This document shows positions 16,011 through 53,006 of a stretch of DNA of 64,000 bases, one piece after another. The DNA comes from Squalus acanthias (Eukaryota): NCBI GenBank assembly GCA_030390025.1, contig JASTWF010000070.1, positions 496,001-560,000 of the forward strand. The letters are read 5' to 3'. The position numbers were made by a program, and so were the translations under genes. The notes under the pieces were generated by a model, which saw nothing but the letters and a program-made list of their open reading frames with translations, had not been told where the DNA came from and ran no database searches. Every line of letters begins with the position of its first letter. Position 1 is the first letter of the stretch.

Positions 16011-16555
16011 NNNNNNNNNNNNNNNNNNNNNNNNNNNNNNNNNNNNNNNNNNNNNNNNNNNNNNNNNNNNNNNNNNNNNNNNNNNNNNNNNNNNNNNNNN
16101 NNNNNNNNNNNNNNNNNNNNNNNNNNNNNNNNNNNNNNNNNNNNNNNNNNNNNNATGACAAGGGCAGCAGGCGCATGGAAACACCACCACCTCCAAGTTC
16201 CCCTCCAAGTCACACATCATCCTGACTTGGAAATATATCGGCCGTTCCTTCATTGTCGTTGGGTAAAAATCCTGGAACTCCCTCCCAAACAGCACCGTGG
16301 GAGCACCTTCACCACACGGGACAGCCGCGGTTCAAGAAGGCGGCTCACCACCACCTTCTCAAGGGCAACTGAGGATGGACAATAAATGCTGGCCTTGCCA
16401 GTGATGCCCACATCCCNNNNNNNNNNNNNNNNNNNNNNNNNNNNNNNNNNNNNNNNNNNNNNNNNNNNNNNNNNNNNNNNNNNNNNNNNNNNNNNNNNNN
16501 NNNNNNNNNNNNNNNNNNNNNNNNNNNNNNNNNNNNNNNNNNNNNNNNNNNNNNN
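16011..16555. other. Assembly gaps (16011-16154 and 16417-16555)
   Basis: N runs. Confidence 1.
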
Positions 16556-17849
16556 GACTCACCCACATATAAACACAGACAGACACACGCACATAAATGC
16601 ATTCTTAAGCCTTGTATATCGACTTAGCATGGAAGCCATTTAGCAACATAGTTTGAGTTATCTTCACAATTATCCAGGAATATCGTCGCATTTCTGCATC
16701 TCTATAATAATTGCTGTGGCCAAAGTATTAAAATCTGTTACCGCACCAGGGCGGGAGTGGGGGGCGACCTCGACTCCCTGTAGAAATAATAAATCTGGTT
16801 ATCTGAAATACAAACTAAAACTGCTGGAATGACACTGCGGATGATTATCTGTCGAGGGCATTATGCCCGAAACATTAACTGATCATTCCTGTCAGTAGAT
16901 ACCACTGCGGTTGATGGATTCGCTCTATTTCCATTCCGAGCGATAATGGGGATTGGATGGAAATTAAGCTAACGTAGACCGCGGTCTGCTCTCTGTTCTC
17001 GGGGCGAAACATTCCTTTGAAGCTAAAATTGTACGCGAACAAAATATGAAACAGGCATTAATTCTGGTAAATCCTTGGTCACGTGCCATAAATATTGAGA
17101 ATAGAATTGTGGGATGGTCTTTGAATCAATCTTAAAAGAACGTGGAAAATATAAAAAGTATACCATTGAAATCGGAGTTGGGGGTTGACTGGTTTTGGCA
17201 CAGTGTTAAATACAGTGTGACTCTTACTGAGGAAAAATGATTCAGTTACTTACTTTTCCTTGTGGGTCTCTTGACTCGTTCTTCTGAAACAATTAACTGT
17301 AATTCGCATTGAAAGATGCGAGAAGGGAATCACATTAAACAAACATTTATTAAAATAGTCCCGATCAACATCAAATCTCTTCTGATCTGCCGCTGTTATG
17401 GAAATGAGGATCAATACTCGAACCAGGATCACCGTGACAGTTATTGCAATGGGAAGGGTCGGAATGCACCACCCTACAGAGAGAAACACTTTGAAAATGC
17501 TGCTGGGTCAAGACATTATTTTCTGGGGTTCTCTGATGAGAAACTTGACCCAGTCACAATGGAGGAGCATTAAACCCGGGGTGTGAAAGGAGAAACCAGC
17601 CATTGCGATTAATATTGGACGAGTAAAAACACATAATGGAATAAACTGCGCTATGTTTGGTGTTTGGGACAAGTTGAAAGACAGGACTCAACAAATATAA
17701 TTCAGCCAGGAGATGCACTTACAGCGGAGAGTTGCTATCAACAGTATATTACGCGTAAACTGCTAGGCTTTATGTAAACACCCTGACAAAATTGTGTTTC
17801 AAAAATTAACAAATGAAGTAATTAGCATTAACATGTCAGACTGAGACGT

Positions 17850-20750: not shown

Positions 20751-21106
20751 ATACAATTCTAAACTTTAACTGCCAAAATTAAAATTCAGAACAATGACAA
20801 ATGCGCACATCCATACTATAACCTTTCTGTCACCCTCTCCGAACTGTAATCGAAAGCTCTTTATGTCCACTCTGCAATTTGCATTAGACTGACCGCTGTG
20901 ACGCACAGACACTGCCCACATGTAAAATGCATCAGGCGTGGGATCTAACAAGATACTGCATCTAAAGGCTTAGCTCTTAATAGTTTCCACCGTATCTGAA
21001 GGGGGTGTAACCAACTGTGTGTGCGCTCGGGTCACTCGGCGCCCACTCCGACTGCAGAATGTTGAGAGCGAGCACGGGAATAACTGAGCGCGGTTCCGGC
21101 CTCAAG

Positions 21107-21161
21107 ATGTTCAAGGCAGCTTTTTCCCTGATCCTCATTGTCCACGTGTTCTCTTCTTACG
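21107..21161 (+). CDS. Gene A leader exon
   Basis: MFKAAFSLILIVHVFSSY then G|GTGAGT. Hydrophobic, phase 1. Confidence 0.85.
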
Positions 21162-21796
21162 GTGAGTGAGACACGGTTCCAAACTCCTAAATGGAATCAG
21201 CCAAAAACTGGAAACAATGGACTGTGTTTACTATGTTGAAAATGTGACCGAGCTGACTGCTTTTGGGCTGATATTTTCGCCCCCTCCCTATCTCTGTAAC
21301 CTCCTCCAGCCCTGCAACCCTCCGAGATCTCAGCGCTCCTCCAATTCTGCGCTCTTGCGCATCCCCCGATTTTAATTGCTCCAACATTGGTGGCGGTGCC
21401 GTCAGCTGCCTGGGCCCTCAGCTCTGGAATACCCTCCCTAAACCTCTCCGTCTCTCTCGCCTCCTTTAAGACTCTCCTTAAAACCTACCTCTTTGACCAA
21501 GCTTTTGGTCACCTGTCCTAATATCTCAGTTTGTGGCTCGGAGTCAAATTTCGGTAAAGCGCCTTGGGTCGTTTAATTACGTTAAAGGCGCTGTATCAAA
21601 GACAGTTGTTGTTGATGATGTTGGTTTACTTTCTGGTCCTTCTATAAGGCGAAGTAAAGGCAAACTAGAGAATGGATATAACAAGTAATAACTGAAGGCA
21701 ATAATGATGCTGTTCTTAAATTATAGGCGAGGTGATTCAACGCGGCTTCTTTCTATCGCTCAATAATCAGTTCTAATGTAACAATAATCCCTCTAG

Positions 21797-22129
21797 TTGC
21801 AGAATCCCAGCCCATCCTGTCTCGGAGCCCCTTCACAGTGACAGCCGGAGTCGGCCAGTCGGTTAAATTGGAATGTCACCAGATTTATGAAGTGTATTTG
21901 GTGAATAGTTATTTCTGGTACAAGCAGCATGTGGGTGAAGCACCGAGACTAATCGATATCCCATCATGTAATCGGACCGATTGCAAGTTTACTTCTAAAA
22001 AAGGACACACCAAATAAAAACTGATCCTGGAAATCCGCAATGTGCAGGTGGCTGACACCGGCTCCTATTACTGTGCTGATAGGGATGGCAATGCACCGCT
22101 CTGGAATGGATCCACACTGCTGGTTGGAG
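21797..22129 (+). pseudogene. Gene A VJ-type V exon with an internal stop
   Basis: VAESQPILSRSPFTVTAGVGQSVKLECHQIYEVYLVNSYFWYKQHVGEAPRLIDIPSCNRTDCKFTSKKGHTK*KLILEIRNVQVADTGSYYCADRDGNAPLWNGSTLLVG|GTAAGA. V-set Cys, WYKQ and DxGxYYC are present. Confidence 0.88.
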
Positions 22130-22219
22130 GTAAGAGCAAAACAAAATTGAATTCAGATCATGCACAGCAATATCATTCGGTGTAAAGTAAGAGTTAACTG
22201 TGTCCCAATCCCTGTCCAG

Positions 22220-22540
22220 ACAGTTCCACACCCAAGACGGCTGTGCTGGTGTTTGCTCCGCCGGGGGAGCCGCATTTAAGGGGCACCGTCCCCTTGGTGT
22301 GTTTGGTCACTGGCATCTCCTCGAACCAGATTGCTATTTACTGGAACGTTACCGGACAGTTGGCCGAGGGACCGAGCGATTCCGGTACACTGAACCCGGA
22401 CGGGACCTACAGCATCAGAAGCCATGTGATGGTCTCGGGGGAAGCCTGGAGAAGCGGCGGGGTCTGCACCTGTATTGTTGAGCTGGGTTCCAATGACAAA
22501 TCTTGGGCCAAGAGCGTGTCGCGCCCCAAAACAGTGGCAG
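22220..22540 (+). CDS. Gene A C1-set Ig exon
   Basis: DSSTPKTAVLVFAPP...VPLVCLVTGISSNQIAIYWNVTG...DGTYSIRSHVMVSGEAWRSGGVCTCIVELG...; 321 nt, phase 1-1, open. Confidence 0.9.
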
Positions 22541-24237
22541 GTGAGTCTGTGATCTGTATAGCGAAGGTCAGCATTTAGCTTTAGCGTCAGTTGGAGTATT
22601 TCACTCGCTCCTAAGCGCCTGAAGTCTGTAATTAAAGCAACACCACGGGATTAGCATGAATATCTATATATCAGGAGAATAGTGCTGTCAGTTTGTTATA
22701 AAACACATTGAAATAAGCTACGGTCACCCACCGTCCAAGGTCTTGTAAATACTTCCTCCGCTCTTGGCTGACTTTATATTTCTGCGGGTCATTTTAGAAT
22801 CATAGAATGATGCAGCACAGAAGGAGGCCATTCGGCCCATCGTGCCTGTGCCGGCTCTTTGAAAGAGCTCTCCAAATAATCCCACTCTCCAGTGCTCTTT
22901 CCCCATAGCCCTTGCAGAATTTTCCCCTTCAAGTATTTATCCGATTCCCTTTTGAAAGTTATTAGTGAATCAGCTTCCACCGCCCTTTCAGGCAGCGCAT
23001 CCTGGAATGGATTGGAGTGAACGCGCTTTCTGACCTGAAACTAGTCAAGAGATGCGGTGAAATAGTTGGCTGAACGCGTCTTCTGGCATCAGATGCTCGC
23101 TCATTTCCACCCGTTTATTTTCTCGTTTCCTGTTTTAAAGACCCGAACCCCACTTATCAACCCCACTTTCCCCGTGAAATATAATTTCATATAATCGGGT
23201 TATGAAGCTTCACTGAAATTGGGTAATCGTTCCAGTTTATCACTCATAAAACATGTGGGGTGTTTGTGCACAAATCTTTGAAGGTGGCAGGAGAAGTCGA
23301 GAAGACTGTTAAAAATACATATGGGGTGCTTGGTTTATTAATAGAGGAATAGAGTACAGAAGCAAGGAAGTTATGCTAAACATTTATAAAGCAATGGTTG
23401 GGCCACAGCTGGAGTATAGTGTCTAATTCTGGCCAAAACACTTTAGGAAGGATGTCAATTCCTTGGAGAGGGCAGAGAGGAGATTTCCTAGAATCGTAAC
23501 AGGGATGAGGGACTTCAGTTATGTGGAGAGACTGGAGAAGCTGGGATTGATTGTTCTCCTTAGATGAGAGAAGGTTAAGAGGAGATTTCATAGAGGTGTT
23601 CAATCATGAATCATGAATGGTTCTGATAGAATAAATAAGGAGAAACTTTTCCCATTGGCAGAAGGGTCGGTAACCAGATGACACGAATTTAAGGTGATTG
23701 GCAAAAGTACCAGAGACGACATGAGGCGACATTTTTTTACGCAGCGATTTGTTGTGATCTGGAACGCGCTGCCTGAAAGGGCGGTGGAAGCAGATTCAAT
23801 AGTAACCTTCAAAAGAGAATTGGATAAATACTTGAAGGGGTAACATTAACAGGGCTATGGGGAAAGAGAAGGGGGAGTGGGACTAATTGGGTAGCTCCAC
23901 CAAAGAGCCGGCACAGCCACGATGGGTTGAATGGTCTCCTTCTGTGCTGTAATCACTCTATGATTCAGTTCTCAAATAGGATGTTTTGATTGTGCGTTAT
24001 TAAAATTATGGGGCAATACTGAGATTAGCGTTTGTCAATTTACCAAAACCACCAAACTAGTGCAATTTATTCCATTTTGAGCTTTCAATTGACCAATATT
24101 AGTCGCATTGGCTGGTTTGTCCTTTCACACACCGGCTTTGATGCTCCTACATTGTAACTGGTTCAGGTTTCTCATCAGAGAATCCCAGAAAGTAATGAGT
24201 TGACCCAGCAGCATTTTCTAAGTGTTTCTCTCTGTAG

Positions 24238-24339
24238 GGTGGTGCATTCTGACCCTTCCCGTTGCAATAATTGTCTCGTTGAACCTGGTTCTGGTATTGA
24301 TCCTCATTTTCATTTGGAATCGTAAAAGCGGCAGATCAG
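24238..24339 (+). CDS. Gene A transmembrane exon
   Basis: tctgtag| then GWCILTLPVAIIVSLNLVLVLILIFIWNRKSGRS and G|GTGAGA. 102 nt, phase 1-1, hydrophobic span followed by basic residues. Confidence 0.88.
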
Positions 24340-24437
24340 GTGAGAATTTACGTTTATCAGGAATATTTTAATAAATGTTTGTTTAATGTGACTCCCTTCT
24401 CGAAGATTTCAATACTAATTACAGTTAACTGTTTCAG

Positions 24438-24468
24438 AAGAACGAGTCAAAATACCCCACAAGAAAAG
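24438..24468 (+). CDS. Gene A cytoplasmic micro-exon (31 nt, frameshifted relative to a 30-nt paralog)
   Basis: gtttcag|AAGAACGAG...AAAAG|GTGAGT. The paralogous exon at 17254-17283 (-) is 30 nt with intact splice sites. Confidence 0.65.
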
Positions 24469-25133
24469 GTGAGTAATTGATCCATTTACAAACTTCCTCA
24501 GTAATAGTCTCACTCTAATTAATACTGTGTCAGAACCAGTCAACCCCAACTCCAATTTCAATATTTTCCACGTTCTTTTAAGATTGATTCAAAGTCCATT
24601 CCACAATTCTGTTCTCGATATTTATGGCACGTGACCAAGGACTTACAAGAAGTAATGCTTGTTTCATATTTTTGTTCGCATACAGTTTTAGTTTGAGAGA
24701 GAGAACGATAAGAACAGGAAGAAATGAGCGACACTCAGGTGAGTTGGACTGAAATGTTGCTGCAGGTAGAACATCAATTGTGGGATATTTCAAAGATCAA
24801 TCAGTGCATTTCCCGCCATGCAAAAGTCCTGCCATCGTGCTCATGTCTGCCGGACCTACAGAAAGCCTAATTATTGGTTATTAATGCTGACAATTATGTA
24901 TCAGATCCACAATAGAGATAAGGCACCGGGGGTTTATCATCCATGTCCATCCATTGGCGTATTGGGATACCATTGGCATATTGGGGTATCATTAGCATAT
25001 TGCTGGACCATTGGCATATTGGTGGACCATGGGAATATTAGGGGGCCATTGGCGCATGGTGCCTCTATAATTAATTATACATTAGCCAGAATTGATAATA
25101 TTTAAATTCATATTCTTAACTGTTAATACACAG

Positions 25134-25183
25134 ATGACACCCGTCAAATGGAGGCGAAGCGGACACATCAGGGTGCAATACAT
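25134..25183 (+). CDS. Gene A cytoplasmic exon
   Basis: acacag|, DDTRQMEAKRTHQGAIH, |GTAAGT. Phase 1 to 0, bridging the TM and last exons. Confidence 0.7.
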
Positions 25184-25984
25184 GTAAGTAAGTTCATTGA
25201 ACCTGTTGCAATAATATACAGGAACTTGATGATTTCTGGGATGGGTCCAAAATGCGGGATATTTCACGCAGTTGGCATTGAGCAGGTCATTGTGCAGATC
25301 ATCTTAATTTGCAGCGAATCCCACTAGTTGCTCCAACTGGAAACAGAAAATACACCGCAGCCCTCTTCCCATCTGATAATAGGAAGGATGGGTTAATGTT
25401 CCGGGTAGAATGCCTTCACCAGACTGTACTGCGGATTTTCAGCAGTTTCTGTTTCTATTTCAGATTTCCAGCTTTTTGTTATTTTCTATTATTTTTTTCT
25501 CTACATTGAGTCCATGTCCACTCACCCCACAACCCCCAGCTCACCCCCACCCCCGCTCCCCGCACACCCCCACCCCGCCAATCCGGCGGAGATACTGTTT
25601 TTAATACATTAGCACAGTAATTATTATGAAGATTCAGAAATAAGACGACACTCAGGATAGTTTCACAGTTAAATCAAAATATGTTTCTATGGTAAGTCGG
25701 CAAAGAAGGAAACAGTTTGGATAGAAGGTGATTGTGTGTGTGTGCGTATGAGAGTGCGTGTGAGTGTGTAACTGTGAGTGGGTGTGTGTGCGTGTGACTG
25801 TGTGTGTACATGTGAGAGTGCATGAGTGTGGGAGTGTCTGTGAGTGTGAGCGTGTAAGTGAGTGTGCGTGCGTAAGATTGTCAACCTGGCTCATTGGGTA
25901 GCACTCTCGCCTTTGGGTCCGTAGGTCATGGGTTCAAGTCCCACTCCAAGAGACTTGCGCAAAAAAATCTAGGTTGATGCTCCC

Positions 25985-26290
25985 AGTGCGGAACTGAGAG
26001 AGTGCCGCACTGTCGGAGGGGCAGTACTTAGGGAGCGCCGCACTGTCGGAGGGGCAGTACTGAGGGAGCGCCGCACTGTCGGAGGGGCAGTACTGAGGGA
26101 GCACTGCACTGTTGGAGGGGCAGTACTGAGGGAGCGCCGCACTGTCGGAGGGGCAGTACTGAGGGAGCGCCGCACTGTCGGAGGGGCAGTACTGAGGGAG
26201 CGCCGCACTGTCGGAGGGGCGGTACTGAGGGAGCGCCGCACTGTTGGAGGGGCAGTACTGAGGGAGCGCTGCACTGTCGCAGGTGCCGTC
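25985..26290 (+). repeat. 33-bp minisatellite (~9 units) inside a SINE
   Basis: Unit gagggagcgccgcactgtcggaggggcagtact; produces spurious 11-aa repeat ORFs. Confidence 0.9.
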
Positions 26291-26994
26291 TTTCAGATGA
26301 GATGTTCAATTGAGGCCGGAATGTGGACGGAAAAGAACTCACGCCACTATCTCGAAGAAGAGCAGAGAGTTCTCCCTGGTGTCCTGGGCCATATTTATCC
26401 CTCAACCAACATCACTAAAAAACAGATGATCTGGTCATTATCCCATGGCTGTTTGAGGGAGCTTGCTGTGCGCAGTTTGGCTGCCACGTGTCCTACAGTG
26501 ACTACACTTCAAAAGTATGTATTTGGCTGTAAAGCGCTTTGGGAGGTGCTAAGGTCATGAAAGGTGCTGTAGAAATGAAAGTATTTCTTTCTTTATGATG
26601 TGTGATGGCGTGTGTGTGTGATACTGTATGGGTATGATTGATTGTGTGTGTGTCATTGAGTGTGAGTGTATTTGAGTGTGTTTAATTGAGTGTGTGTGTG
26701 TGATTCTGTGTGGGTATGATTGATTGTGTGTGTGTCTATGAGTGTGAGTGTATTTGAGTGTGTGTATCTGTGTGTAATTGAATGTGTGTGTGTGATTCTG
26801 CCTGGGCATGATTGATTGTGTGTGTGTGTGTGTGTGTGTGATTGAGTGACTGTGTGTGTAAATTTGTCTGGGTGTGATTGATTGTGTATGTGTGTGTGTG
26901 TGTGATTGAGTGTCTGTGTGTATGTGATTATGTCTGGGTATGAATGATTGTGTGTGTGTGTGTGAGTGATTGAGTGTCTGTGTGTGTGTTAGTA

Positions 26995-29900
26995 AGAACA
27001 CAAGAACATAAGAAATAGGAGCAGGAGTAGGCCAATTGGCCCCTCGAGCCTGCTCCGCCATTCAATAAGATCATGGCTGATCTGATCCCAACCGCCAATC
27101 TACTATCACAGAACCATCTCCTGAACCCAACAGAATTGGACACACGAAATAGGAGCAGGATCAGGCTACACGGCCCCTGGGCCCGCCACGCCACCCACAG
27201 GGCCATGACCGATCCGAACCCAGACTCATGTCCAAATTCCTACCCGCTCCCCGTAAACCTTAATTCCCTTTACTTCGAGGAAACTGTCTATTTCTGTTTT
27301 AAATTTATGTAATGATGTAGCTTCTTCAGCTTTTTGGGGCAGCATATTCCATGGACCTACCACCCTCTGAGTGAAGTAGTTCCTTCTCATCTCAGTTTTG
27401 AAAGAGCAGCCCCTTATTCTAAGACTATGCCCCCTAGTTCTAGTTTCACCCATCATCGGGAACATCCTCCCCGCATCCACCCGATCCAACACCTTCACAA
27501 TCTTATATGTTTCAATAAGATCGCCTCTCATTCTTCTGAACTCCAATGAGTAGAGTCCCAATCTACCCAAACTCTCCTCATATGTCCATCCCCTCATCCC
27601 CGGGATTAACCGAGTCAACATTCTTTGTACTGACTCGAGAGCAAGTATGTCTTTTCTTAAGTATGGACACCAAAACTGTATGCAGTATTCCAGGTGCGGT
27701 CTAACCAATACCCTGTACAACTGAAGCAATACCTCTCTATTTTTATATTCTATCCCCCTAGCAATGAAAGCCAACATTCCATTGGCCTTCTTGATCACTT
27801 GCTGCACCTGCATACTAACCTTTTGAGTTTCGTGCACCAGGACCCCCAGATCCCTTTGTACTTCAGTACTTTCCAGTTTCTTGCCATTAAGATAATAACT
27901 TGCTCTATTATTTTTCCTGCCAAAGTGCATAACCTCACACTTTCCAGTATTGTATTCCATCTGCCAAATCTCTGCCCACTTACTTAGCCTGTCTATGTCC
28001 CCTTGCAGATTTTTTATGTCCTCCTCACTCACTACTTTCCCTCCCATCTTTGTATCATCTGCAAACTTTGATATGTTACACTCGGTCCCCTCCTCCAAAT
28101 CGTTAATATAGATTGTAAAGAGTTGGGGACCCAGCACTGACCCCTGCGGAACACCACTAGTTACTGATTGCCAGTCTGAGAATGAACCATTTATCCCAAC
28201 TCGCTGCCTTCTGTTAGATAGCTAATCCTCTATCCATGCCAGAATATTACCCCCAATCCCGTGATTTTTTATCTTAAGCAATAATCTTTTGTGTGGCACC
28301 TTGTCAAATGCCCTTTGGAAGTCTAAATACACCACATCCACTGGTTCCCCTTTATCCACCCTGTATGTTACTTCCTCAAAGAACTCCAGCAAATTTGTCA
28401 AACATGACTTCCCCTTCATAAAACCATGCTGACTTTGTCCTATTAAATTATGATTATCCAAATGTCCCGTTACTGTCTCCTTAATAATGGACTCCAAAAT
28501 TTTACCTACCACAGATGTTAGGCTAACTGGTCTATAGTTTCCAGCCTTCTGTCTACTGCCCTTTTTAAATAAGGGTGTTACATTAGCAGTTTTCCAGTCT
28601 GCTGGGATCTTTGCTGAGTCCAGGGAGTTTTGGAAAATTATTACCAATGCATCCACAATCCCTACCGCCACTTCCCTCAAGACCCTAGGATGTAAGCCAT
28701 CAGGTCCAGGTGATTTATCCGCCTTGAGTCCCATTATTTTACCGAGTACCACTTCCTTAGTGATTTTGATCGTGTTTAGCTCCTCCCCCCTTATAGCCCC
28801 CTGTTTGTCCAGTGTTGGGATATTCTTAGTGTCATCTACTGTAAAGACTGATACAAAATATCCATTCAGTGTATTCGCCATCTCCATATTTCCCACCATT
28901 AATTTCCCGGTCTCATCCTCTAGACACCCTTTTTCTTTTTATATAACTATAAAAACTCTTACTATCTGTTTTTATATTTTTTGCTAATTTACTTTCATAA
29001 TCTATCTTCCCTTTCTTAATCAATCTTTTTGTTATTTTTTGCTGTCTTTTAAAGTTTTCCCAATCCTCTATCCTCCCACTAGATTCGGCTACCTTCTAGA
29101 CCCTTGTTTTTAGTCGAATACTATCCTTAATTTATTTACTTAGACACAGATGACTGTCTTTTCTTTTACACCCTTTTCTTCTCAGTGGAATATATATTTT
29201 TTGGAAGTTGTAATATAACTCCTTCAATGTACACCACTGATCATGTATCGTCTTACCCTTTAATCTATTTTCCCAATCCACTCTACTCAATACCGCTCGC
29301 ATACCTTCTTAGTCTCCTTTATTCAAGCATAGCACGCTTGTTTGAGATCCAACCTTCTCACCCTCTAATTGAATATGGAATTCAACCATGTTATGGTCAC
29401 TCATTCCAATGGGATCCTTTACTAGGACATTTTTTATTAATCCTGTCTCGTTACATAGGACCAGATCTAAGGTTGCTTGCCCCCTGGTCGCTTCAGTTAC
29501 ATTCTGCTCAAGAAACCCATCCTAATACACTCAATTAACTCATCCTCAAGGCAGCCCTGCCCAATTTGATTTGTCCAATTAATATGATAGTTAAAATCCC
29601 CCATAATTAAAGATGTTCCCTTATTACAAGCCTCAACTATTTCCTGATTGATACTCCGTCCAACAGAGTTGCAACTGTTCGGAGGCCTATAGACTACGCC
29701 CACTAGTGTTTTTTCCCCTTATTATTCCTTATCACCACCCAAACTGTTTCATTATCCTGATCTTTTGACCCAATATCATTTCTCTGTATTACAGTGATTC
29801 GTTCCTTTATTAACATAGCCACCCCACCTCCCCTTCCTTCCTGCCTGTCCTTCCTGATCGCTAAATAACCTGCTATGTTTAAGTCCCAGGCATTGTCACC

Positions 29901-30380
29901 CTGCAGCCATGTTTCCGTAATGGCCACAAGATCATACCCATATGTAATCATTTGTGCCATTAACTCGTCTATTTTGTTACGAATGCTACGTGCATTCAGA
30001 CAGAGAACTTTCAAATATGTTTTGTGACACTTAGTTCCTGCTTTTGCCATTTTTATTACTTTACCTTTTACTCCATATCTTCTGCCCCTTCCTGGCACAC
30101 TCTGGTTTTTAATTTCTCCACTGCTACCTAAGTCTATGACCTTCTCTGTTGTCATTTTTTATTATTTGCTCTCTAGGAACGTCTCCCCCACTAGTTAGTT
30201 TAAAGCCCTCTCTACAGCCCTAGTTATCTGATCCGCCAGGACTCTAGTCCCATCACTGGGCAAGTGAAGCCCGTCCCAATGGAACAGCTCCATCCTGCCC
30301 CAGTACTGGTGCCAGTGTCCCAGGAAGCAAAACCCATTTCTCCCACACCAGTCTTTGAGCCACTCATTTAACTCTCTATT
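26995..30380 (-). mobile_element. Long CR1 LINE (ORF1 C-terminus, endonuclease, RT) within a TG-rich tract in the last intron of gene A
   Basis: EN start LKVLCLNARSIRNK...AITETWL; GDFN; RT motifs NYRPVSLTS and KFADDTK; upstream LFHWDGLHL (esterase-like ORF1 end). Stops and frameshifts present; TG repeats at 26600-26990 and 30385-30550. Confidence 0.93.
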
Positions 30381-30399
30381 CTGTCTGGGTGTGATTGAT

Positions 30400-30445
<46 letters not shown>

Positions 30446-30889
30446 AGAGTGTTATTCTGTCTGGGTATTATTGATTGTGTGTGTGTGAGTGATTGAGTGT
30501 ATGTGTGTGTGTGATTCTGTCTGGGTATGATTGATTGTGTGTGAGTGATTGTGATCTATGTAACCTTGTAGATGGCGCATGGCAAAACATGACCGTCTGA
30601 TTGGATTGTTTTTGATGTGTCTATCCTATCAAACAGATAGACTCATCATCCCAGTTTCCTGATTAAATGTTGGTGATTTCTGGGTTCAGCTGCTTTAAGA
30701 GTTGTGCTCCTCTGTGTGTTAAAACATTAATTCAGACAGTTCTTGTGTGGACATATTAAGCAAATTCTCAAATTTAGAAAGCGGGTGATGGAAGCAGATT
30801 CAATGCTTAATTTCAAAAGCGAATTGGATAAATACTCGAAGGATAAAAATGTGCAAGTCTGTGGGGAAAAGCAGGGAGAGTGGGACTAA

Positions 30890-31820
30890 TTGGATAGAGT
30901 GGGCAGTAAGTTGGCAGATGAAGTATACTGTAGGGAAATGTGAGGTTATTCACTTTGGTAGGAAGAATCGAAAAACAGTATATTTTTTAAATGGTGAGAA
31001 ACTTTTAAATGTTTGTGTTGAGAGAGAATTGGATGTCCTCGTGCAAGAAACACAGAAAGCTAGCATGCAGGTATAGCATGTAATAAGGAAGGCAAATGGC
31101 ATGTTGTTTTTACTGCAAGGGAGTAGGAGTATAAGAGTAAGGAGGTCTTGCTACAATTATACAGGGCCTTCGTGAGACAACACCTGGAGTACTGTGCACA
31201 GTTTTGGTCTCCTTATCTTAGGAAAGATGTACTTGCCTTGGAGGCGGTGCAACAAAGGTTAACTAGATTGATTCCTGGGATGAGAGGGCTGTCTTATGAT
31301 GAGAGATTGTGTAGATTGGGCCTATTCTCTCTGGAGTTTAGAAGAAAGAGAGGTGATCTCATTGAAACATACAAGATACTGAAGGGGGTTGAAAGGGTAG
31401 ATGCTGAGAAGCTGTTTCCCCTGGCTGGCATGTCTAGAACTAGGGGACATAATCTCAGGATAAGGGGTAGGCCATTTAAGACGAAGATTAGGAGGAATTT
31501 CTTCACTCAGAGGGTTGAGAATCTTTGGAATTCTCTGCCCCAGAGGCCTGTGGATGCTCAGTCTTTGAGTATATTCAAGACTGAGATAGATAGATTTTTG
31601 GACTCTAGGGGAATCAAGGAATATGGCGATCGAGTAGGAAAGAGGAGTTGAAGTCGATGATCAGCCATGATCTTATTGAATGGCGGAGCAGGCTCGAGGG
31701 GCCGTATGGCATACTCCTGCTCCTAATTCCTATGTTCTTATGATCTTTCAAAGAGCCAGCACAGGCACGATGGACCGAATGGCCTGCTTCTGTGCTGCAT
31801 CGTTCTATGATTCCATGAAA
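30890..31820 (+). mobile_element. CR1 LINE 3' fragment
   Basis: LEYCAQFWSPYLRKD...RNFFTQRV. Confidence 0.88.
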
Positions 31821-31899
31821 CGCGACTGCAGGACGAGATAGTTTGAACTACCTTTAAATATCTTGAAATGTCAATGTTTAATATATTTTCCTGTCTCAG

Positions 31900-31986
31900 G
31901 GCGGCACTCGAGACCGGATACTTTACGCCTCTCTGGAATTTGCTGCCTCGGAAAAGTCATCAAAAAAGAAGGCGGGTCGCGGATGA
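31900..31986 (+). CDS. Gene A terminal exon with ITIM (ILYASL)
   Basis: ttttcctgtctcag| then GGTRDRILYASLEFAASEKSSKKKAGRG*. Phase 0; AATAAA near 32321. A decayed copy lies at ~15400-15545. Confidence 0.8.
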   Translation, partial: GGTRDRILYASLEFAASEKSSKKKAGRG

Positions 31987-34900
31987 GAACCCGGAGGGTT
32001 TCTATCGGATGGATGCGGGAGGAGATCAGGACTTACAAAAGAACCCACAGCCGGCGGGAAAAAGAATGGAGCCACGGAGACTCCCGTCAAACATCCAAAC
32101 TATCTCCCTGCACTCGCCAGAGTTTGCAAAGACTCTTTCTATTCAATGTAAACGAACGTGCTTTGAGTATTGTAAAGATATTCCATTGCTCAAGTGTAAT
32201 TCAAGTGTGAGACCAACATTAAGAGCAGGGACTTCTCGGTTTGGTCTTTCTCTGAACCTTTCCTGCTCATCCTGCAGCTCCAGTTAGTAACAAATTTTTT
32301 TTTCCAAATGCTTGTGTATAAATAAAATAAATTATTCTTCGAATGTAACGATGCACGAGAGGTTCCTATCGATCAATACTTCACTTATAATAAAATGTGA
32401 TCAGGATAAAACTTCAATGACTATTGAACTGACAATATCGGTCCTGAATTGAGATACTGTTAGTGGCGGTATCCTCTGTCTGAGAAGCCAGAGGCTTAAT
32501 CATTTACAGACTAAGAGCACCACAGGAGAGAATCGCGGGCAGAAATGCGGGAATTGTGCCTGGTTCCATTTTACCTTTGGGGTAGTGTGTTTTGCTGTGT
32601 GTAGTAATGTCAAAACTACATGTCAGAGACAGATGGTGAGTGTAGCGTGGATTGGGAGGAATGGGTGACTTTGGACCTGTGGTTTCCTAAAGCTCTCCAC
32701 CACTGGAGGTTTGCTCACGTCAGATCTGGGTCTCTTGTAGATTCGTGGATATGGATGGATTGCCATGACAACCGCATTATCATTGTATCATGCGATTACC
32801 AGGATGGTAGAAGGTATGGCAACTGGCATGTTGGCCTTTATTGCACGGGGGTTGGAGTATAAGAGTAAGGAAGGACCTTGGCCCTTTCTCGTCTAGCAAT
32901 TCCTATGTTCAAGATCCCAGGTTTGCACAATTTTGGGAGAAGATATTCAACCAGAGACAGGATTGCACCATAGGTGGTTATTTTGCTTTATCCATCAGGG
33001 TCAGATCAGTCTAAGTATTCCCCTTCTGATTACTTTGGAATCAGCATGTACAACCGAATGAGATTCAGGAGCAACAAAAACAGTTCCTGACAAAGACCCT
33101 TTCAAATCAATCTCTCAGAAACTGTCCAATAAATTACATGAGGATTTGAATAAATTCCTAACAACCGTTTTCTAATTAATGATAATTTATATTGTAGGGT
33201 TCTATAAAACTGATCTAAGTTCACCAGGACGATACTGGGGCAAAAATGGTAACATTCTAAGGGCAGGTTGCATAGACAAGCCTTATATTCTCCAGAGTTG
33301 AGAAGATTAAGGGGTGATCTATTTGAGGTGTTTAAGATGATTAAAGGATTCGATGGGGTAGATAGAGAGAAACTATTTCCTCTGGTGGGGGGAGTCCAGA
33401 ACAAGGGGCCGTCACCTTAAAAGTAGAGCCAGGCCATTCAGGGGTGATGTCAGGAAGCACTTCTTCACACAAAGGGTGGTGGAAATCTGGAATTCTCTCT
33501 CCATAAAAGGTATAGAGGCTGGGGGTCAATTGAAATTTTCAAAACTGAGGTTGATAGATTTTTGCTGGGCAAGGTTATTAAGCGTTATGCAACCAAGGCG
33601 GGTAGATAGAGTTAACCTACAGGTCAGCTTAAAGGCCTCTGTCAGGTCACCACTCTGTCTTCTCTTTTTAAGAGAAATGTGACTCTGCCTGTTCAATCTT
33701 TCCTGATGTGTATAACGCCTTAGTTCTGTATCATCCTTGTACAGCTTTTTTGCACCTTCTCCAGTGCCTCTATATCCTTTTTATAATATGGAGACCAGAA
33801 ATGTGCGCAGTGCTCCAAGTGTGGTCTAACCAAGGTTCAATACAAGTTCAACACAACTTCGCTGCTTTTCAATTCTATCCCTCCAGAAATTAACCCCAGT
33901 GCTTCTTTTGCTTGTTTTAATGGCCTTATTAACCTGTGTCGCTAATTTTAGTGATTTGTGTACCTGCACCCCAGATCCTCTACCCCATTTGAAAACTTAT
34001 TTTCTAAGAACTAACGGATACTAATTGTGGGCAAAAGCCACCATAAATTTGCTGAAGAAATCACTTAACTGCATTATTAAAAAAGAGCAGATGGATTTAA
34101 AATAATTTACTTTCAGCGGTAAATGTGACAGAGTTCTCTCCCAGATCAGAAACAGAGAAAGCTCGGGGTCCATTTACACAAGAACATAAGAAATAGGAGC
34201 AGGAGTCGGCCAAGCGGCCCTTCCAGCCGGCTTCGCCATTCAATATGATCATGGCTGATCTTCTACCTCATCTCCACTTTCCTGCACTATCCCCATATCC
34301 CTTGATTCCCTAGAGTACAAAAATCTATCGCTCTCTGTCTTGAATATACTCAACGACTGAGCCTCCACAACCCTCTGGGGTAGAGAATTCCAAAGATTCA
34401 TCACCCTCTGAGTGAAGAAGTTTCTCCTCATCCCAGTCCTAAATGGCCGACCCCTTATTCTGAGACTGTGACTCCTGGTTCTAGATTCCCCAGCCAGGGG
34501 AAACATGCTCCCTGCATCTAACCTGTCAAGCCCTGCAAGAATTTTGTATGTTTCAATGAGATCACCTCTCATTCTTCTAAACTCCAGCTTTAATATCAAT
34601 GCAGCCTAAATCCGGAGGCAGTGCCAAAGCTGCCCAGTCGGTCCTGAGCCCCACTTTTGAACGGCACACATTTACTCTATAAATGTGCATTGCAAAATGC
34701 CATTAAAGGAACACTGAGCGCATCTGGACTGAAGGATCAAAGGGCTGGAATCACAAACACAATGCTAGAGTTTGAAAACCTGTTTTATTGTATTTGTAAC
34801 TTGAACACTGATGCATTGTAAAGATTATTTGAATTATATCGTGCTCGCATACAAAGACGCGAAATAAATCTATAAACGTCAATACAAGAGAGGAGAAACA

Positions 34901-35506: not shown

Positions 35507-35551
35507 TCAGAGGGTCGGGACCGCATTAAACGCCAGGTGGGCGTAAAGAGT
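35507..35551 (-). CDS. Gene B terminal exon with tyrosine motif TLYAHL
   Basis: ttttctctcatag| then TLYAHLAFNAVPTL*. Phase 0; parallels the LYASLEF of gene A. Confidence 0.75.
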   Translation of the reverse strand, partial: TLYAHLAFNAVPTL

Positions 35552-36289
35552 CTATGAGAGAAAACAGAAACCATTATCATGGCCCACATCATCATCATAG
35601 GAACAGAGGGACAGGAGGAGGCTATTCAGCCCATCGAGCCTGTTCCGCCATTCAGTCAGATCATGGCTGATCTGTATCTTAACTCCATCTACCCGCCTTG
35701 GTTGCCTACCCCTTAATCCCCTTACCCAACAAGAATCTATCAAAATTCTCTCAGTTTTGTAATTTCCAATTGACCCCCCCAGCCTCAGCAGCCTTTGGGG
35801 GGAGAGAGTTCCAGATTTCCACCGCCCTTTGTGTGAAGAAGTGTTTCCTCACATCACCCCTGAACGGCCTGGCTCTAATTTTAAGGTGATGCCGCCCTTG
35901 TTCTGGACTCCCCCCACCAGAGGAAATTGTTTCTCTCTGTCTACCCCATCGAATCTTTAATCATCTTAAACACCACAATTAGATCACCGCTTAATATTCT
36001 ATACTTGAGGGAATACAGCCCGAGTCTGTGCAACCTGTCCTCGTAATTTAACCCTTTTAGTCCCGGGTATCATTCTGGTGAATCATTATTCTGCAATTTC
36101 AAATATCCAGATCTATATTTTTTTAATCTCCGTTCGCAGTTTTACATAAAAGGAAAACAGTGCTATTCTGTAGTTCTCACTATGCAATGTTTTATAGACT
36201 AGTTTACTAGGAATCTTAAACATTGGTTTAAAATAAGTGCAAGGTATCAACATTTAAAGATCGCATGGATGAACTACAGAATTTGTTCA

Positions 36290-38365
36290 TACCTGTCTGG
36301 CATAAAAATAAAACAAAACAGGTGGTGCACCGTGGCTAACAAGGGAAATTAGGGATAGCATAAGATCCAAGGAGAGGACATATAAATTGGCCAGAAAAAG
36401 CAGCAAAACTGAGGATTGGGAGCAGTTTAGGATTCAGCAAAGGAGGACAAAAGGATTAATTAAGAGGGGGAAAATAGAGTATGAGAGTAAGCTTTCTGGG
36501 AACATAAAAACTGACTGTAAAAGCTTCTATAGAAATGTGAAGAGAAAAAGATTGGTGAAGTCAAGCGTAGGTCCCTTGCAGTCAGAATCAGGGAAATTTA
36601 TAATGGGGAACAAAGAAATGGCTGACCAATTAAATACATACTTTGGTTCTGTCTTCACAAAGAAGGACACAAATAACCTCCCAGTGATGTCGGGGAACAT
36701 AGGATCTAATGAGAGGGAGGAACTGAATGAAATCAGTATTTGTAGGGAAATAGTGTTAGGGAAATTGACGGGATTAAAGGCCGATAAATCCCCAGGGCCT
36801 GATAATCTACATTCTAGGGTACTTCGGGAAGTGGCCCAAGAAATAGTAGATGCATTGCTGGTCATCTTCCAAAATTCTATAGACTCTGGCACAGTTCCCA
36901 TGGATTGGAGGGTAGCTAATGTAACCCCACTATTTAAAAAAGGTGGCAGAGAGAAACCGTGGAATGGTGAGCCTGACATCAGTAGTGGGGAAAATGCTAG
37001 CGTCCATTATAAAAGATGTAATAGCAGAGCACTTGGAAAACAGTGACAGGATCGGACAAATCAATATGGATTTACAAACGGTAAATTGTGCTTGGCTAAT
37101 CTACTGGAATTTTTTGAGGATGTAACTGGTAGGATAGATAAGGGAGAACCAGTGGATGTGGTGTATTTGGACTTTCAGAAGGCTTTCGATAACGTCCCGC
37201 ATAAGAGATTAGCGTGTAAAGTTAAAGCACATGGAATTGGGGGTAAGGTACTGATTGGATAGAGAACTGGTTGGCAGACAGGAAGCAAAGAGTTGGAATA
37301 AACGGGTCTTTTTCCGAGTGGCAGGCAGTGACTAGTGGGGTACCGCAGGGATCGGTGCTAGGACCCCAGCTATTCACAATATATATGAATGATCTAGACG
37401 AGGCAACTAGATGTAATATCTCCAAGTTTGCAGACGACACAAAGCTGGGTGGACGTGTGTGCTGTGAGGAGGATGCCGAGAAACTCCAGTATGATTTGGA
37501 CAGGTTGGGTGATTGGGCAGATGCATGGCAGATGCAGTATAATGTGGATAAATTCGAGGTTATCAACTTGTGGCAAAAACAGGAAGGCAGATTATTATCT
37601 GAACGGCAATAGATTGGGAGAAGGGGAAGTGCAATGAGACCTGCGTGTCCTTGTGCACCAGTCGCTGAAGGTAAGCATGAAGGTGCAGCAGGCAGTTCAG
37701 AAGGCAAATGGTATGTTGGCCTTCATCGCGAGAGGATTCGAGTACAGGAGCAAGGATGTCTTGCTGCAGTTGTACAGGGCCTTGGTGAGAGTACACCTTG
37801 AGTACTGTGTGCAGTTTTGGTCGCCGTATCTGAGAAAGGATGTTCTTGCCATGGAGGGAGTGCAGCGACGATTCACCAGACTGATCCCTGGGATGGCAGG
37901 AATGACGTATGAAGAGAGATTGGGTCGATTGGGCTTCTATTCGCTGGAGTTTAGAAGAATGAGAGGGGACCTCATTGAAACTTATAAAATTCTACCAGGA
38001 CTAGACAGACTAGATGCAGGAAGGATGTTCCCGATGGCGTGGGAGCCCAGAACCAAGGGTCACAGTCGAAAGATAAGGGGTAAGCCATTTAGGACAGAGA
38101 TGAGGAGGAATTTCTTCACCCAGAGAGTGGTGAACCTGTGGAATTCTCTATCACAAAAGGCGGTTGAGGCCAATTCATAAAATATATTCAAGAAGGAGTT
38201 AGATATATTTCTTAAGGCTAAAGGGATCGAGGGATATGGGGAGAAAGCAGGGACAGGGTACTGAATTTGGATGATCAGCCATGATCTCATTGAATGGTGG
38301 AGCAGGCTCGAGGGGCCGAATGGCCTACTCCTGCTCCTATCTTCTATGTTTCTATGTTTCTATGT
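36290..38365 (+). mobile_element. 5'-truncated CR1 LINE in the last intron of gene B
   Basis: RT ORF fragments (SGVPQGSVLGP, KFADDTKLGG) and a (tttctatg)n tail. Confidence 0.92.
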
Positions 38366-38394
38366 TAAGCAAAAACAATTCTTTTCATATCTAC

Positions 38395-38453
38395 CTCCTT
38401 GTCTTGTGCACGTGATCTCGAATCGGTCAATTTCTGATCGCTGTTCGTGTTCC
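38395..38453 (-). CDS. Gene B cytoplasmic exon
   Basis: tctctttatatcag|, GNTNSDQKLTDSRSRAQDKE, |GTAGAT. Phase 1 to 0. Confidence 0.75.
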
Positions 38454-38596
38454 CTGATATAAAGAGAAACTTAATCTAAGTCTAAATGCACACATTTCAC
38501 ACTGAACCGGCCCACTAACATGTAATGAGCCAATGAAACAATAAATGGATTGATTGGGAGCGCCGTGGAGTTGGAGCGTCTCCCAACAACCGCTAC

Positions 38597-38713
38597 CTGA
38601 CCGCCGGTTCCTGCAGCTCCTTCCCGCGGCGACAATAACCATCAGCAGAAGGAGAAGCGCCGCCGCCGAAGTCCCGTAAAGCAGTAATCTGCAGTTGGTT
38701 TGTAGCGGGGACA
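38597..38713 (-). CDS. Gene B stalk and transmembrane exon
   Basis: tttctttcttcag| then VSPLQTNCRLLLYGTSAAALLLLLMVIVAAGRSCRNRRS and G|GTAGCG. 117 nt, phase 1-1. Confidence 0.85.
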
Positions 38714-38904
38714 CTGAAGAAAGAAAAAAAACAACCTTTTATTTTTTTTAAATCACGTAACCCGAGCTTTCTGGTTCTCGCAGAAGGTTCAAAGAGGCCC
38801 AACACCACATTCTCAACCACTAGGGATGGCCAATCAATGCCAGACTTACCAGCGTCCCCCACATCACGAGAACAAATTAAAAATGTTGCTGGAAATCATT
38901 AGAT

Positions 38905-39090
38905 NNNNNNNNNNNNNNNNNNNNNNNNNNNNNNNNNNNNNNNNNNNNNNNNNNNNNNNNNNNNNNNNNNNNNNNNNNNNNNNNNNNNNNNNNNNNNNNN
39001 NNNNNNNNNNNNNNNNNNNNNNNNNNNNNNNNNNNNNNNNNNNNNNNNNNNNNNNNNNNNNNNNNNNNNNNNNNNNNNNNNNNNNNNNNN
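38905..39090. other. Assembly gap in the C1-TM intron of gene B
   Basis: N run. Confidence 1.
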
Positions 39091-41180
39091 AGACAAATAG
39101 ACAGACAGAACTATATAACCATGAACCTATCGAAGGGTAGTGCAGAGAAGGAGACTATGAGGCCCTCCATGTTTGTGCCGGCTCTATGCTAGATGGATCC
39201 AAAACTAATCCCATTACCCGGCTCTCTCTCCATATTCCTGTATCAATCCAAAACGAATCCCAAAGAACACTTATTCCCCTGTGATGCACCACTTCCAATC
39301 CTTCGCCAATCCGAGGAATACCCATTTACCCTATCTCCTTATGTTTTGAATGTCACCTAACTTTCCATCCATGCTGACACATCTCCTTCACACCAAACCC
39401 CTAAATTGTTTCCCAACAGCCTTCTTGTGCGACACTTTATCAAACGCCTCCTGGAATTCCATACACGTTACATCTACTGCAATCCCTTTAACTATCCAAT
39501 CGGTTCGTTCCACAAAAGCTCTTTTAAATTTGTTAAACACGACTCCACTTTCACAATTCGGTGCTGGTTGTCCTTAACTAGCCCAGCCATTTTTAACTGC
39601 TCACCACAGTCAGTTCAAATTACGGATTCTAAGTGTTTGTCCGCAACTCATCTGATATATGGTAGCCCAAGTGACACCTTTCTCCTCTCTTAGATGAAAC
39701 GTTAGATAGAAACCGTTTGGGTCGGAAGAATAAGGAGGTCACATACTCCTTGGAAAATAAGTATCTAAATGGAGCAGAGGAGCAGTGGGATCTGGAGGTA
39801 CAGATACACAAATCACTAAAAGTAGCGACGCAGGTTAATAAGGCCATAAAAGCAAACCAAGGACTGGGGTTCATTTCTAGAGGGCTAGAATTGAAAAGCA
39901 GAGAAGTTATGTTAGATTTCTGCAGAAACTTGGTTGGACCACACTTGGAATACTGTGAACATTTCTGGGTTCCATAATATAAAGAGGATATATAGACACT
40001 GGAGAAGATACAAAAAGATTTACTAGGATGATACCAGAATTGAGACGTTATGCCTATCAGGAAAAATTGAACAGGCTGGGCTCCTTTCTCGACAAAAGTG
40101 AGGACTGAGAGGTGACCTGATAGAGGACTTTAGATTATGAAAGGGTTTACATAGAATTACATAGGATATACGGCACAGAAACAGGCCATTCGGCCCAACC
40201 AATCCATTCCGGCGTTTATGCTCCACTCGAGCCTCCTCCCGTCTTTCCTCATCTAAATCAATCAGCTTATGCCTCTATTCCCGGCTCCCTCACATGCTTG
40301 TCCAGCCTCCCCCTTCAAATGCATCTATACTATTCGCTTCAACCACTCCCTGTGGTAGCGAGTTCCACATTCTCACCACTCCCCGTGTAAAAAGTTTTGT
40401 CCTGAATTCCCTATTGAATTTCTTGGTGACTATTTTATATTGATGGCCTCTAGTTATGCTCTACCCCACAAGTGGAAACATTCTCTCTCTATCTACACTG
40501 TCAAAACCTTTGATAGGGTCGACGTAGAGAAGATCTTTCCAATTGTGGGGGGGGGGGGGCGCTTGGGATCAGAACTAGGCGCCACAACTAAAAGATAGTT
40601 ACTATTAAAACCAATTGGGAATTCAGGAGAAACTTCTTTACCCAGAGAGCGGTGAGAATGTGGAACTCGCTACTACAGGGAGTGGTTGAGGCGAATAGTA
40701 TAGATGCATTTAAGGGGAAGCTGGATAAACACATGAGGGAGAAACGAATAGATGGATATTGATGGGTTTATAATGAAGTGGGATGGGTGGGGACTCGTGT
40801 GGAGCATAAACACCGGCACGGACCTGTTGGGCCGAATGGCCTGTCGCTGTGCTGTACATACTGTGTAATACAGATACCTACATGCAGGTATCGAGAGAGA
40901 AAGTGATAAACTGGAAATGGCAATTATATGTTCCAATTTTACGCATGGACAGCTCAGACAGATTCCTTCTCTCCCACCATATACGTATGGCCTAGCTAGT
41001 CAGATGGACTTTATAATTCAGAAAGCTCAACACTGCAACATTGAGAGGGGTAAATGATTGGGTAATTCTACATGGACACGCAGAAAGGGAGAGACTTTGA
41101 ATGTATAAAGTGATATTGCGAACAATTAACTCTTACATCAGCACGGAAGATATTAGTAAAGTGTCACTGCCAATAGTTAC

Positions 41181-41482
41181 CTCTCTGAGATGAGACACTT
41201 TCACTGATCAGATCCCCACTGGAGTTGATTGGAACGGCGCAAGTACAGACAGCGCCGCTGCTCCAAGTTTCCGCCGAGACGCTGATGTGATTCCTTACAC
41301 TGTAGGTCCCGCCGGGTCTATTGTCCCGGAATCGCTCGGTTCCTCGGTAATCTGTCCGGAAACATTCCAGCGAACGGGAAGGGAATCGAGAGACATGCTT
41401 TTCACCAAACACATCAATGGGACCCTTTCCAGCGAGGGAATTTCATCCGGCGGCGGAGCTAAGAGAAAGATTTCCGGAGACC
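41181..41482 (-). pseudogene. Gene B C1 exon with a frameshift
   Basis: GSPEIFLLAPPPDEIPSLERVPLMCLVKSMSLDSLPVRWNVSGQITEEPSDSGTIDP, then -1 bp at 41311/41312, then GTYSVRNHISVSAETWSSGAVCTCAVPINSSGDLISESVSSQR. 302 nt (303 expected); homologous to gene A C1. Confidence 0.88.
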
Positions 41483-41574
41483 CTGGCGAGTTTGGGGGGT
41501 TAAGATACCATTAATATTCGACGTAAATTGGTCGTTATTTATGATGAAATTAGTAAAACAATCGCAATTCTTAC

Positions 41575-41913
41575 CTGCAATGAGCAATTTCGTGCCGTTT
41601 CCGAATATCAAGGGCATTCCGCTATATTTCTTAGCTGCGCAGTAATAGACCCCCGAATCATTCCTCTGGACATCTTTCACAATCAGAGAGTAAATACTGG
41701 ATTCGTTGTTAACTTCTCCGGAAAATCTTCCTTCGGGAGGCATGTACTTACCCACGCTGTAAACTAGCTGTAGATGCTCTCGGTGCTGCTGCTTATACCA
41801 GTGTACAGCTTCTACTGCTAACCAACCCGTGTGACAATCCATCTTAAAGATACTTCCAACGGAGACAGTCAGAAACGGCGGATTCTGGCGGAAAACTTCC
41901 TGAGAGACAATAA
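41575..41913 (-). CDS. Gene B germline VJ exon (intact)
   Basis: VIVSQEVFRQNPPFLTVSVGSIFKMDCHTGWLAVEAVHWYKQ...RFSGEVNNESSIYSLIVKDVQRNDSGVYYCAAKKYSGMPLIFGNGTKLLIA, then G|GTAAGA. 339 nt. Confidence 0.93.
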
Positions 41914-42548
41914 CTGCGAGAACAACATATTCACAAGAGGGTCTGTTACACGGCAGAAAAAAACACCGCTTCCTATAAAGAAACGGGCACAGTAGTAAAC
42001 TGTGAATAGGACCATCCGATCATTAATGATCATGGATACCAATATCTAAATGAGTCAAATGATGGGGGTTAAAATTGAGTCTATAACAGGAGAAAGAATG
42101 AAAGGAAGAAAGAAAGAAAGAAAGAAAGGAAGAAAAATCTTTACAGCCAATGAATTACCTTTTGCAGTGTAGTCGCTATTGGAATGTAAGAAACGCGGCA
42201 GCCAAATTGCGCACAGCAAGCTCCCACAAACAGCAATATGATAATGACCAGGTAATCTGTGATGTTGATTGAGGGATATAATATTGGCCCCAGGATACCG
42301 GGCAGAACTCCCCTGCTCTCCTTCCAATAGTGGCCGTGGGATCTTTTCCCTACACCTGAGAGGGCAGACGGGACATCCAATAGATGGAAAATATTGACAT
42401 TTGGTCTAATTTCATTCGCCTGAGATAATCCAGTCCATCAACATGACACTAATATTACAGAATACAGCGCGCTATCTTCTACTTGTCTGACTAGCTCAAT
42501 GATCTTACGCTTGAACTCCGCCATGTATTAGAAGCACATAAGACTGAC

Positions 42549-42591
42549 CTGGAAAGAGATGGAACAGCGCGCAGGGAGTTAAGAAGCTCAT
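42549..42591 (-). CDS. Gene B leader exon
   Basis: MSFLTPCALFHLFP then G|GTCAGT, phase 1. Confidence 0.75.
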
Positions 42592-48027: not shown

Positions 48028-48356
48028 TCAGTCGGAACACGAGGAGGCGCTGATGGTCTTGAGAAGAGGCGACCTCAGGGAGCCGTGGCTGACGCTGCAA
48101 GAATAGCTGGAGCCCTTGTTCCAGGCGGCGGCGGGGACTCTCAGGTAACTGCTCAGGCTGTAGGTTTGATCGCTGTCCGGGGACACGGCGCCTGTCGTCA
48201 CCCCGCTGTCTGTCTCATGGTCATCCACGCTCCAACGGAGCCGCACCAAGCCCGGCTTAAAGCGACTCACCAGGCAGGACAGAGTGGCCGATCCCGAGCC
48301 GATTTCTTCCGAGGAGGGAGGGAGGACAAGAACCGATGGGCTTCGATCCTCGCTGC
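48028..48356 (-). CDS. Ig light chain constant exon, cluster 2
   Basis: 329 nt, phase-1 acceptor cacag|GC, open. Nearly identical to the cluster 1 C exon. Confidence 0.95.
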
Positions 48357-52852: not shown

Positions 52853-53006
52853 CTTCAATAAAAGAAAAAAAGACAACCCATTCAGAGACTTGGAGCAAAT
52901 AGGATGTTAATACGTCAATAAACACGGAAAGAAAACAGCCCGATTCTCGGTATTGAACCGATTTAGTTGCGGATAAAACCCTTGACTAAAACCATCCGTC
53001 TCTCAC

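Follow-up and report, generated by a model that had tools for sequence, protein, structure and literature searches.

The exon at positions 31900-31986 on the + strand is, we believe, in all likelihood the final coding exon in a family of shark transmembrane receptors with a germline-joined VJ domain and a C1 domain, and it carries an ITIM in frame. In intact sister copies the receptor would be inhibitory, and the copy studied here is likely a pseudogene. The window, by which we mean the whole 64-kb stretch of DNA that was analysed, corresponds to C3553:496001-560000 of a 3.7-Gb genome, and we refer to the gene that ends with this exon as gene A. The exon itself is an ordinary exon and is correctly assigned to gene A. 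It matters because the last exon fixes the signalling class of the A/B family (B being the convergent partner gene of A), whose proteins, from sharks to alligators, carry the database labels "immunoglobulin kappa light chain-like" or "uncharacterized"; the family is interesting and poorly annotated.

The last exon and the gene it completes

Gene A comprises eight exons on the + strand: a leader (21107-21161), a single-exon VJ domain (21803-22129) with a degenerate J that has no FGxG, a C1 exon (22220-22540), a transmembrane (TM) exon (24238-24339), three short tail exons (cytoplasmic exon 1, 24438-24468, 31 nt; exon 2, 24692-24738, 47 nt; exon 3, 25134-25183, 50 nt), and the last exon with the ITIM. 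The leader and C1 exons were read from the window translation, and the domain calls derive from PDB matches, in which V and C1 match antibody and TCR chains, and from the precomputed Pfam assignments of homologues, which carry PF07654 (C1-set) and PF07686 (V-set). The TM exon encodes a membrane-proximal Cys, nearly invariant in alignment A2, and a span that has no charged residue and offers no adaptor-binding residue. No RSS-like site was found in the 64-kb window. Phases across the exon borders run 1,1,1,1,2,1,0 and the frame closes exactly over the eight exons; thus, the last exon is entered in the ILYASL frame. Skipping either cytoplasmic exon 1 or cytoplasmic exon 2 singly destroys that frame, whereas skipping both preserves it.

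The last exon consists of 28 codons, GGTRDRILYASLEFAASEKSSKKKAGRG in the window translation, followed by TGA at 31984-31986. Its acceptor, tttaatatattttcctgtctcAG before GGC at 31900, is 75% pyrimidine over 20 nt with an AG-free zone of 56 nt, and it ties for the best pyrimidine share among the seven acceptors of gene A. The donor GTAAGT follows the phase-0 end of cytoplasmic exon 3 at 25183, so that the joined message would read GCAATACAT followed directly by GGCGGCACT. The first AATAAA, a candidate poly(A) signal, lies at 32321-32326, 335 nt past the stop. The strong phase-0 acceptor, the motif, the stop, and the downstream AATAAA that had been read from the letters are all present as described in the first-pass annotation, as are the letters of the 25183/31900 junction and the 6.7-kb repeat-filled intron, which measures 6716 nt (25184-31899). 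In a self-comparison of the window, this intron contains simple repeats and an interspersed repeat at about 27140-29146, which resembles two other copies within the window at 68% and which we take to be a LINE.

The motif ILYASL (31918-31935) fits the ITIM consensus [I,V]xYxxL as a passage of PMC11599192 writes it. Because 2 of 210 acceptor-like sites of the window with a like pyrimidine share reach a strict ITIM in phase 0, the 31900 exon being one of the two, the motif alone is weak evidence for an exon, and it is homology that decides. We give almost no credence to the idea that the transcript ends or splices elsewhere, with the motif a chance match or read in another frame. The last intron does hold 15 acceptor-like sites whose pyrimidine share equals that of the 31900 acceptor, the Cetorhinus model P0010 reads the exon in a different frame, and the paralogues, as described below, show no purifying selection. 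However, there is no AATAAA on the + strand of the intron, the other acceptor-like sites sit in repeats that are missing from most short-intron copies, and the in-frame end peptide recurs in sharks from Heptranchias to Scyliorhinus and also in rays. Four runs of presumed RNA type were compared with positions 21000-32500; repeats swamp the result, and the 25183/31900 joint is absent among the matches listed. Based on the letters of the window and of its relatives, we regard the splicing of cytoplasmic exon 3 to position 31900 as very likely.

The cassette array and the state of the window copy

Searched with the C1 exon, the genome yielded 24 A-type copies, which are 84-100% identical to the query; contig C3553 carries 21. 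Two pairs of A copies are near-identical across contigs; since such copies may be haplotype duplicates, 24 is an upper bound. Exon mapping covered 80 stretches of 10 kb plus the window, and the DNA search used the last exon and UTR. Of the 24 A genes, 22 are followed on their own strand by a near-identical last exon (of the other two, one has lost the exon and one is truncated by the contig end), and all 22 last-exon copies retain the AG acceptor and the TGA. This recurrence, together with the end peptide that models from other sharks share, bears out the assignment of the exon to gene A. The first AATAAA sits +322 to +335 past the stop in 18 of the 22 copies. The motif reads ILYASL in 15 copies, IFYASL in one, HLYASL in two, and PLYASL in two, and two have no Tyr. 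An unbroken frame with GT-AG borders is found in 12 of the 24 copies.

Besides the window copy, 20 copies have a measurable last intron, which is 1.9-3.6 kb long in 16 and 6.5-10.2 kb long in four. All four of the latter are intact and their intron aligns to that of the window at 91-97%; thus, the extra length represents an insertion common to these copies, and we reject it as the cause of death of the window gene. The nearest sister cassette is the same for the V and C exons of the window as for its last exon, distances computed over V+C and over the last exon correlate (rho 0.37, Mantel p 0.007, n 22), and the distances of A, B, and an inverted relic of A correlate over cassettes in 9 of 10 Mantel tests at p<0.05.

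That relic, which represents the 3' half of A, lies on the - strand at 15422-17665 and comprises a TM exon without a donor, the first tail exon, and the last exon. Its last exon (15422-15578) aligns to 32010-31853 at 73.6% and follows the relic TM/tail block (17665-17020, 83%); it has lost the Tyr and suffered a 2-nt deletion. The decayed exon had been offered as independent support for the assignment to gene A. It is indeed present and shows the exon order, but the relic occurs in 22 of the 24 cassettes and is therefore one old inverted duplication carried along with the cassette rather than independent evidence. The relic TM exon does not belong to gene B, which has its own TM exon at 38713, and loss of the relic acceptor is likewise rejected, as an AG is kept 6 nt upstream of the acceptor position of A. 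Models from other sharks carry two extra residues (SQ or PQ) before GG, corresponding to the 6 nt before 31900 (31894-31899); the AG at that upstream site is absent in all 22 A copies and kept in the relic (15536, - strand). We infer that an in-frame 6-nt acceptor shift happened in this lineage.

The relic-A-B cassette is repeated over C3553:1-1.39 Mb, at C24:48.87 Mb, over C185:0.53-0.79 Mb, and on C3349, and its orientation on C3553 flips near 0.38 Mb. Exons of Ig light chains flank the A-B pair in the window, namely three C exons and two germline-joined VJ exons on the - strand (2727-3055, 5760-6100, 48031-48356, 52520-52865, and 60900-61204), and light-chain C exons of the same type recur along C3553; sigma-2 / sigma-cart is a candidate isotype, suggested by the C sequence. 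Among the light-chain clusters, the array evolves as relic-A-B cassettes duplicate and genes frequently die.

The window copy appears to be one such death. Its V exon has an in-frame TAA at 22015-22017, which is unique to this copy among 19 full-length V exons, the sister copies reading TAT, AAA, GAA, or TCT at that codon, and its leader-to-ITIM frame is accordingly broken. The C1 exon of its convergent partner B is 302 nt long versus 303 nt in intact copies, which shifts the frame. Given the stop in V and the frameshift in the partner, the ITIM is probably untranslated from the window copy, and the cassette is probably dead. A premature stop in the second of eight exons would direct a transcript to nonsense-mediated decay, and we consider it likely that any transcript of the window gene would be degraded in this way or would encode a truncated product.

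Two ways of rescuing the window copy deserve consideration. The exon might belong to a functional gene A, with the TAA either miscalled in the consensus of an A-rich run or confined to a single allele: the site is A-rich (AAATAAAAA), the remaining exons and splice sites are all sound, and the nearest sister is intact and only 2.5% different. We find this improbable, because the V exon is still 327 nt long, which argues for a substitution rather than a homopolymer slip, because partner B of the same cassette is broken independently, and because half of all A copies are broken, which makes gene death common. Alternatively, the copy might persist as a V-less isoform running from leader to C1, TM, and ITIM with the stop skipped in frame. 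The leader, V, and C1 exons are indeed all 1/1 in phase, the V-skipped model is open through the ITIM, and exon skipping is seen within the family in the Heterodontus models P0001 and P0007; V is present, however, in all 16 homologous models, the V splice sites of the window copy are intact, and the partner chain is broken, which leaves the isoform decidedly improbable. (In P0001 and P0007 it is the TM exon that is skipped in frame, with the tail retained, and these may be soluble isoforms.) We thus return to a pseudogene as the preferred reading of the window copy.

Purifying selection was not seen among the paralogues: the last exon has a pN/pS of 1.30 over all copies, and in intact copies pN is 0.065 versus a pS of 0.035. 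Together with one intact copy that has no Tyr, this speaks against strong constraint on the motif. The Tyr is lost in two A copies, at C3553 about 1.200 Mb and 1.317 Mb (TLHTVL and TVHTVL), the latter with its frame intact, and the B partners of both read TLFAHL and carry an insertion in V. Among 11 distinct intact V exons of A, variation concentrates in the CDR1- and CDR3-like loops (permutation p 0.0004; contiguous-window test p 0.011), which span 21 of 108 codons and account for 20 of the 49 extra amino-acid states; the test was run without the DE loop, which had been chosen after inspection of the data. Positive selection in these loops was not detected, the N:S ratio showing no significant difference from the rest of V (Fisher p 0.54), and the interval of the V pN/pS, 0.84-3.24, includes 1. 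In the V of B, a concentration in CDR-like loops was not significant (p 0.08).

Homologues, partner chain, and predicted signalling

The nearest homologues of the window gene are shark proteins. Of 16 homologous models from other sharks, all of them automatic gene models, 11 share a terminal xxYASL followed by a basic tail (seven from Heterodontus, two from Mustelus, and one each from Scyliorhinus and Heptranchias), and the tails map to 31894-31980 by tblastn; of the remaining five, P0010 uses another frame of the exon and four stop before the exon. The word "canonical" that had been applied to the ITIM holds for ILYASL in the window and for 16 of the 22 copies, but not for 10 of the 11 other-shark models, in which Pro occupies Y-2 (Heptranchias, the exception, reads VLYASL).

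Further afield, a profile search found the arrangement of V, C1, Cys, TM, and terminal Tyr motif in rays, bichir, sturgeon, paddlefish, lungfish, amphibians, turtles, squamates, and alligator, the taxon names covering 30 of 150 listed matches. The ectodomain tree had 61 rows, consisting of matches of 230-440 aa with a TM (long multi-domain matches being left out), and one Ig light chain, with no TCR, as outgroup. In this tree, shark A clusters with the ITIM-type proteins of rays, bony fish, lungfish, and tetrapods (94/86, slightly under the star threshold of the tree tool) and shark B with tetrapod TEYAxL-type proteins (97/84). A third V-C1-TM lineage forms a 20-row clade with tails that read VQYAxL or are short; the eight rows named belong to sturgeon, bichir, gar, bowfin, tarpon, char, lungfish, and coelacanth. 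The A-like lineage is multi-copy in turtles and crocodilians (P0226-P0341), and expansion is therefore no peculiarity of this shark. When tetrapod A-like proteins served as queries, the best 120 of 136 matches included turtle, alligator, squamate, caecilian, and lungfish proteins, and no bird or PRARP-named protein was among those 120. The J motif of the tetrapod A-like proteins is FGNG in Chelydra and degenerate in others.

Exon mapping placed the convergent partner, gene B, at 35507-42591 on the - strand, with a leader (42591-42549), a VJ exon with FGNG (41913-41575), the frameshifted C1 exon (41482-41181), a TM exon (38713-38597), a tail exon (38453-38395), and a last exon with TLYAHL (35551-35507). 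TLYAHL fits TxYxxL and is ITSM-like; the strict ITSM consensus, TxYxxV/I, does not cover it. B is open in 9 of the 22 blocks where a B TM or last exon was found, and A and B are both open in seven cassettes. For the B-like C1 exons at L047-L050 and L111 (C3553 about 0.106 and 0.132 Mb; C24 48.886 Mb), no B TM or last exon was matched at the level of 80% identity; they may be a diverged B subtype or fragments. Both chains have a membrane-proximal Cys, nearly invariant in alignment A2 and invariant in alignment A3, and an uncharged TM, and A- and B-like proteins appear to share contigs in Scyliorhinus, Cetorhinus, Stegostoma, Huso, Rhinatrema, and Hemicordylus. The conserved Cys, the uncharged TMs, the convergent linkage, the co-duplication, and the shared contigs in these six species suggest that A and B pair, and we lean, if slightly, toward a disulfide-linked A-B heterodimer, TCR- or Fab-shaped, that would combine one ITIM with one ITSM-like motif.

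In the model that we propose, an intact gene A would encode a type I membrane protein with an ITIM tail. ITIMs recruit SH2 phosphatases, and the phosphorylated ITIM of intact A would bind SHP-1/2 and thereby damp lymphocyte activation. By analogy with known ITIM receptors, we predict with fair assurance that intact copies signal inhibition via SHP-1/SHP-2. A different role for a real exon would be trafficking, with the Tyr motif serving YxxL endocytosis, or the binding of an adaptor rather than a phosphatase. YASL also fits the YxxPhi sorting consensus, most other-shark models have Pro at Y-2, and one intact copy has lost the Tyr; against this, Y-2 is I, V, L, or S in rays, bony fish, lungfish, and tetrapods, and the TM is uncharged, as in inhibitory receptors. 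We judge trafficking or adaptor binding rather unlikely and retain phosphatase recruitment as the predicted function.

More speculatively, sharks might keep a germline repertoire of TCR-shaped inhibitory A-B heterodimers, diversified in their CDRs and including natural Tyr-less variants, that is, a KIR-like polymorphic brake built on the antigen-receptor scaffold that predates RAG, and possibly related to the gene that RAG split. This idea is tentative, and we would not bet on it. In passages of PMC12227049 and PMC10751288, non-rearranging VJ-C1 genes are sought after as relatives of the gene that the RAG transposon split, and the A-B array would pose a testable question of ligand and signalling.

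Comparison with known systems

UrIg and UrIg2 resemble gene A in having a single-exon VJ followed by C1, in occurring in elasmobranchs, in being auto-annotated as Ig light chain, and in their linkage to antigen-receptor loci, as described in parts of PMC12227049. There, UrIg is a secreted protein with three C1 domains, UrIg2 contains nine, and the term ITIM does not occur in the paper. Gene A has one C1 and an ITIM tail, and we rule out its being UrIg or UrIg2 on the number of C1 exons, one versus three or nine. With TCR and Ig light chains, gene A shares the phase-1 leader, V, and C1 exons, the membrane-proximal Cys, and its PDB matches. It differs in that its V and J are joined in the germline, with no RSS-like site in the window, that its TM has no charged residue for CD3, and that its tail has 70 residues and an ITIM; these same features rule it out as a rearranging TCR or Ig.

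SIRP-alpha, NITR, and PD-1 are alike in their V-type ectodomain, uncharged TM, and Tyr-based inhibitory tail, and SIRP clusters occur among the Atlas feature neighbours of P0015. SIRP has the layout V-C1-C1 with several motifs. PD-1 and NITR have no C1, whereas A and B have one motif per chain, split over two partner genes. PD-1 is described in part of PMC11599192 as an ITIM-bearing joined-VJ receptor. The literature searched contained no description of this shark array, which may nevertheless already be in print.

The closest comparison is PRARP, reportedly two linked non-rearranging VJ genes, of V-C1 layout outside birds. Its products, found in bony fish, amphibians, and reptiles, are said to have ITIM or ITSM tails and to form disulfide-linked dimers. 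These homo- or heterodimers reportedly occur on the surface of B and T cells. A and B match PRARP in layout and taxonomic range: V and J are joined in the germline within a single exon and accompanied by C1, the window shows no RSS-like site, and the two genes form a linked pair with ITIM/ITSM tails, here the convergent ILYASL of A and TLYAHL of B. At the J motif, canonically FGxG, B has FGNGTKLLI and A has the degenerate LWNGSTLLV or LGNGSTLLV. A difference is that PRARP is one pair, whereas about two dozen cassettes are here interleaved with Ig light-chain clusters. PRARP is listed among joined-VJ IgSF genes in part of PMC11599192, and a passage of PMC10751288 locates it in the MHC. As far as sequence can tell, A (ITIM) and B (TxYxxL) are members of a pair found from sharks to reptiles, and that this pair is identical with PRARP (Fu et al. 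2019, J Immunol 202:1992, cited in PMC10751288) is a candidate relation that we think probable. With a two-chain, ITIM-bearing version amplified beside light-chain clusters, the range of the PRARP-type pair would come to include cartilaginous fish.
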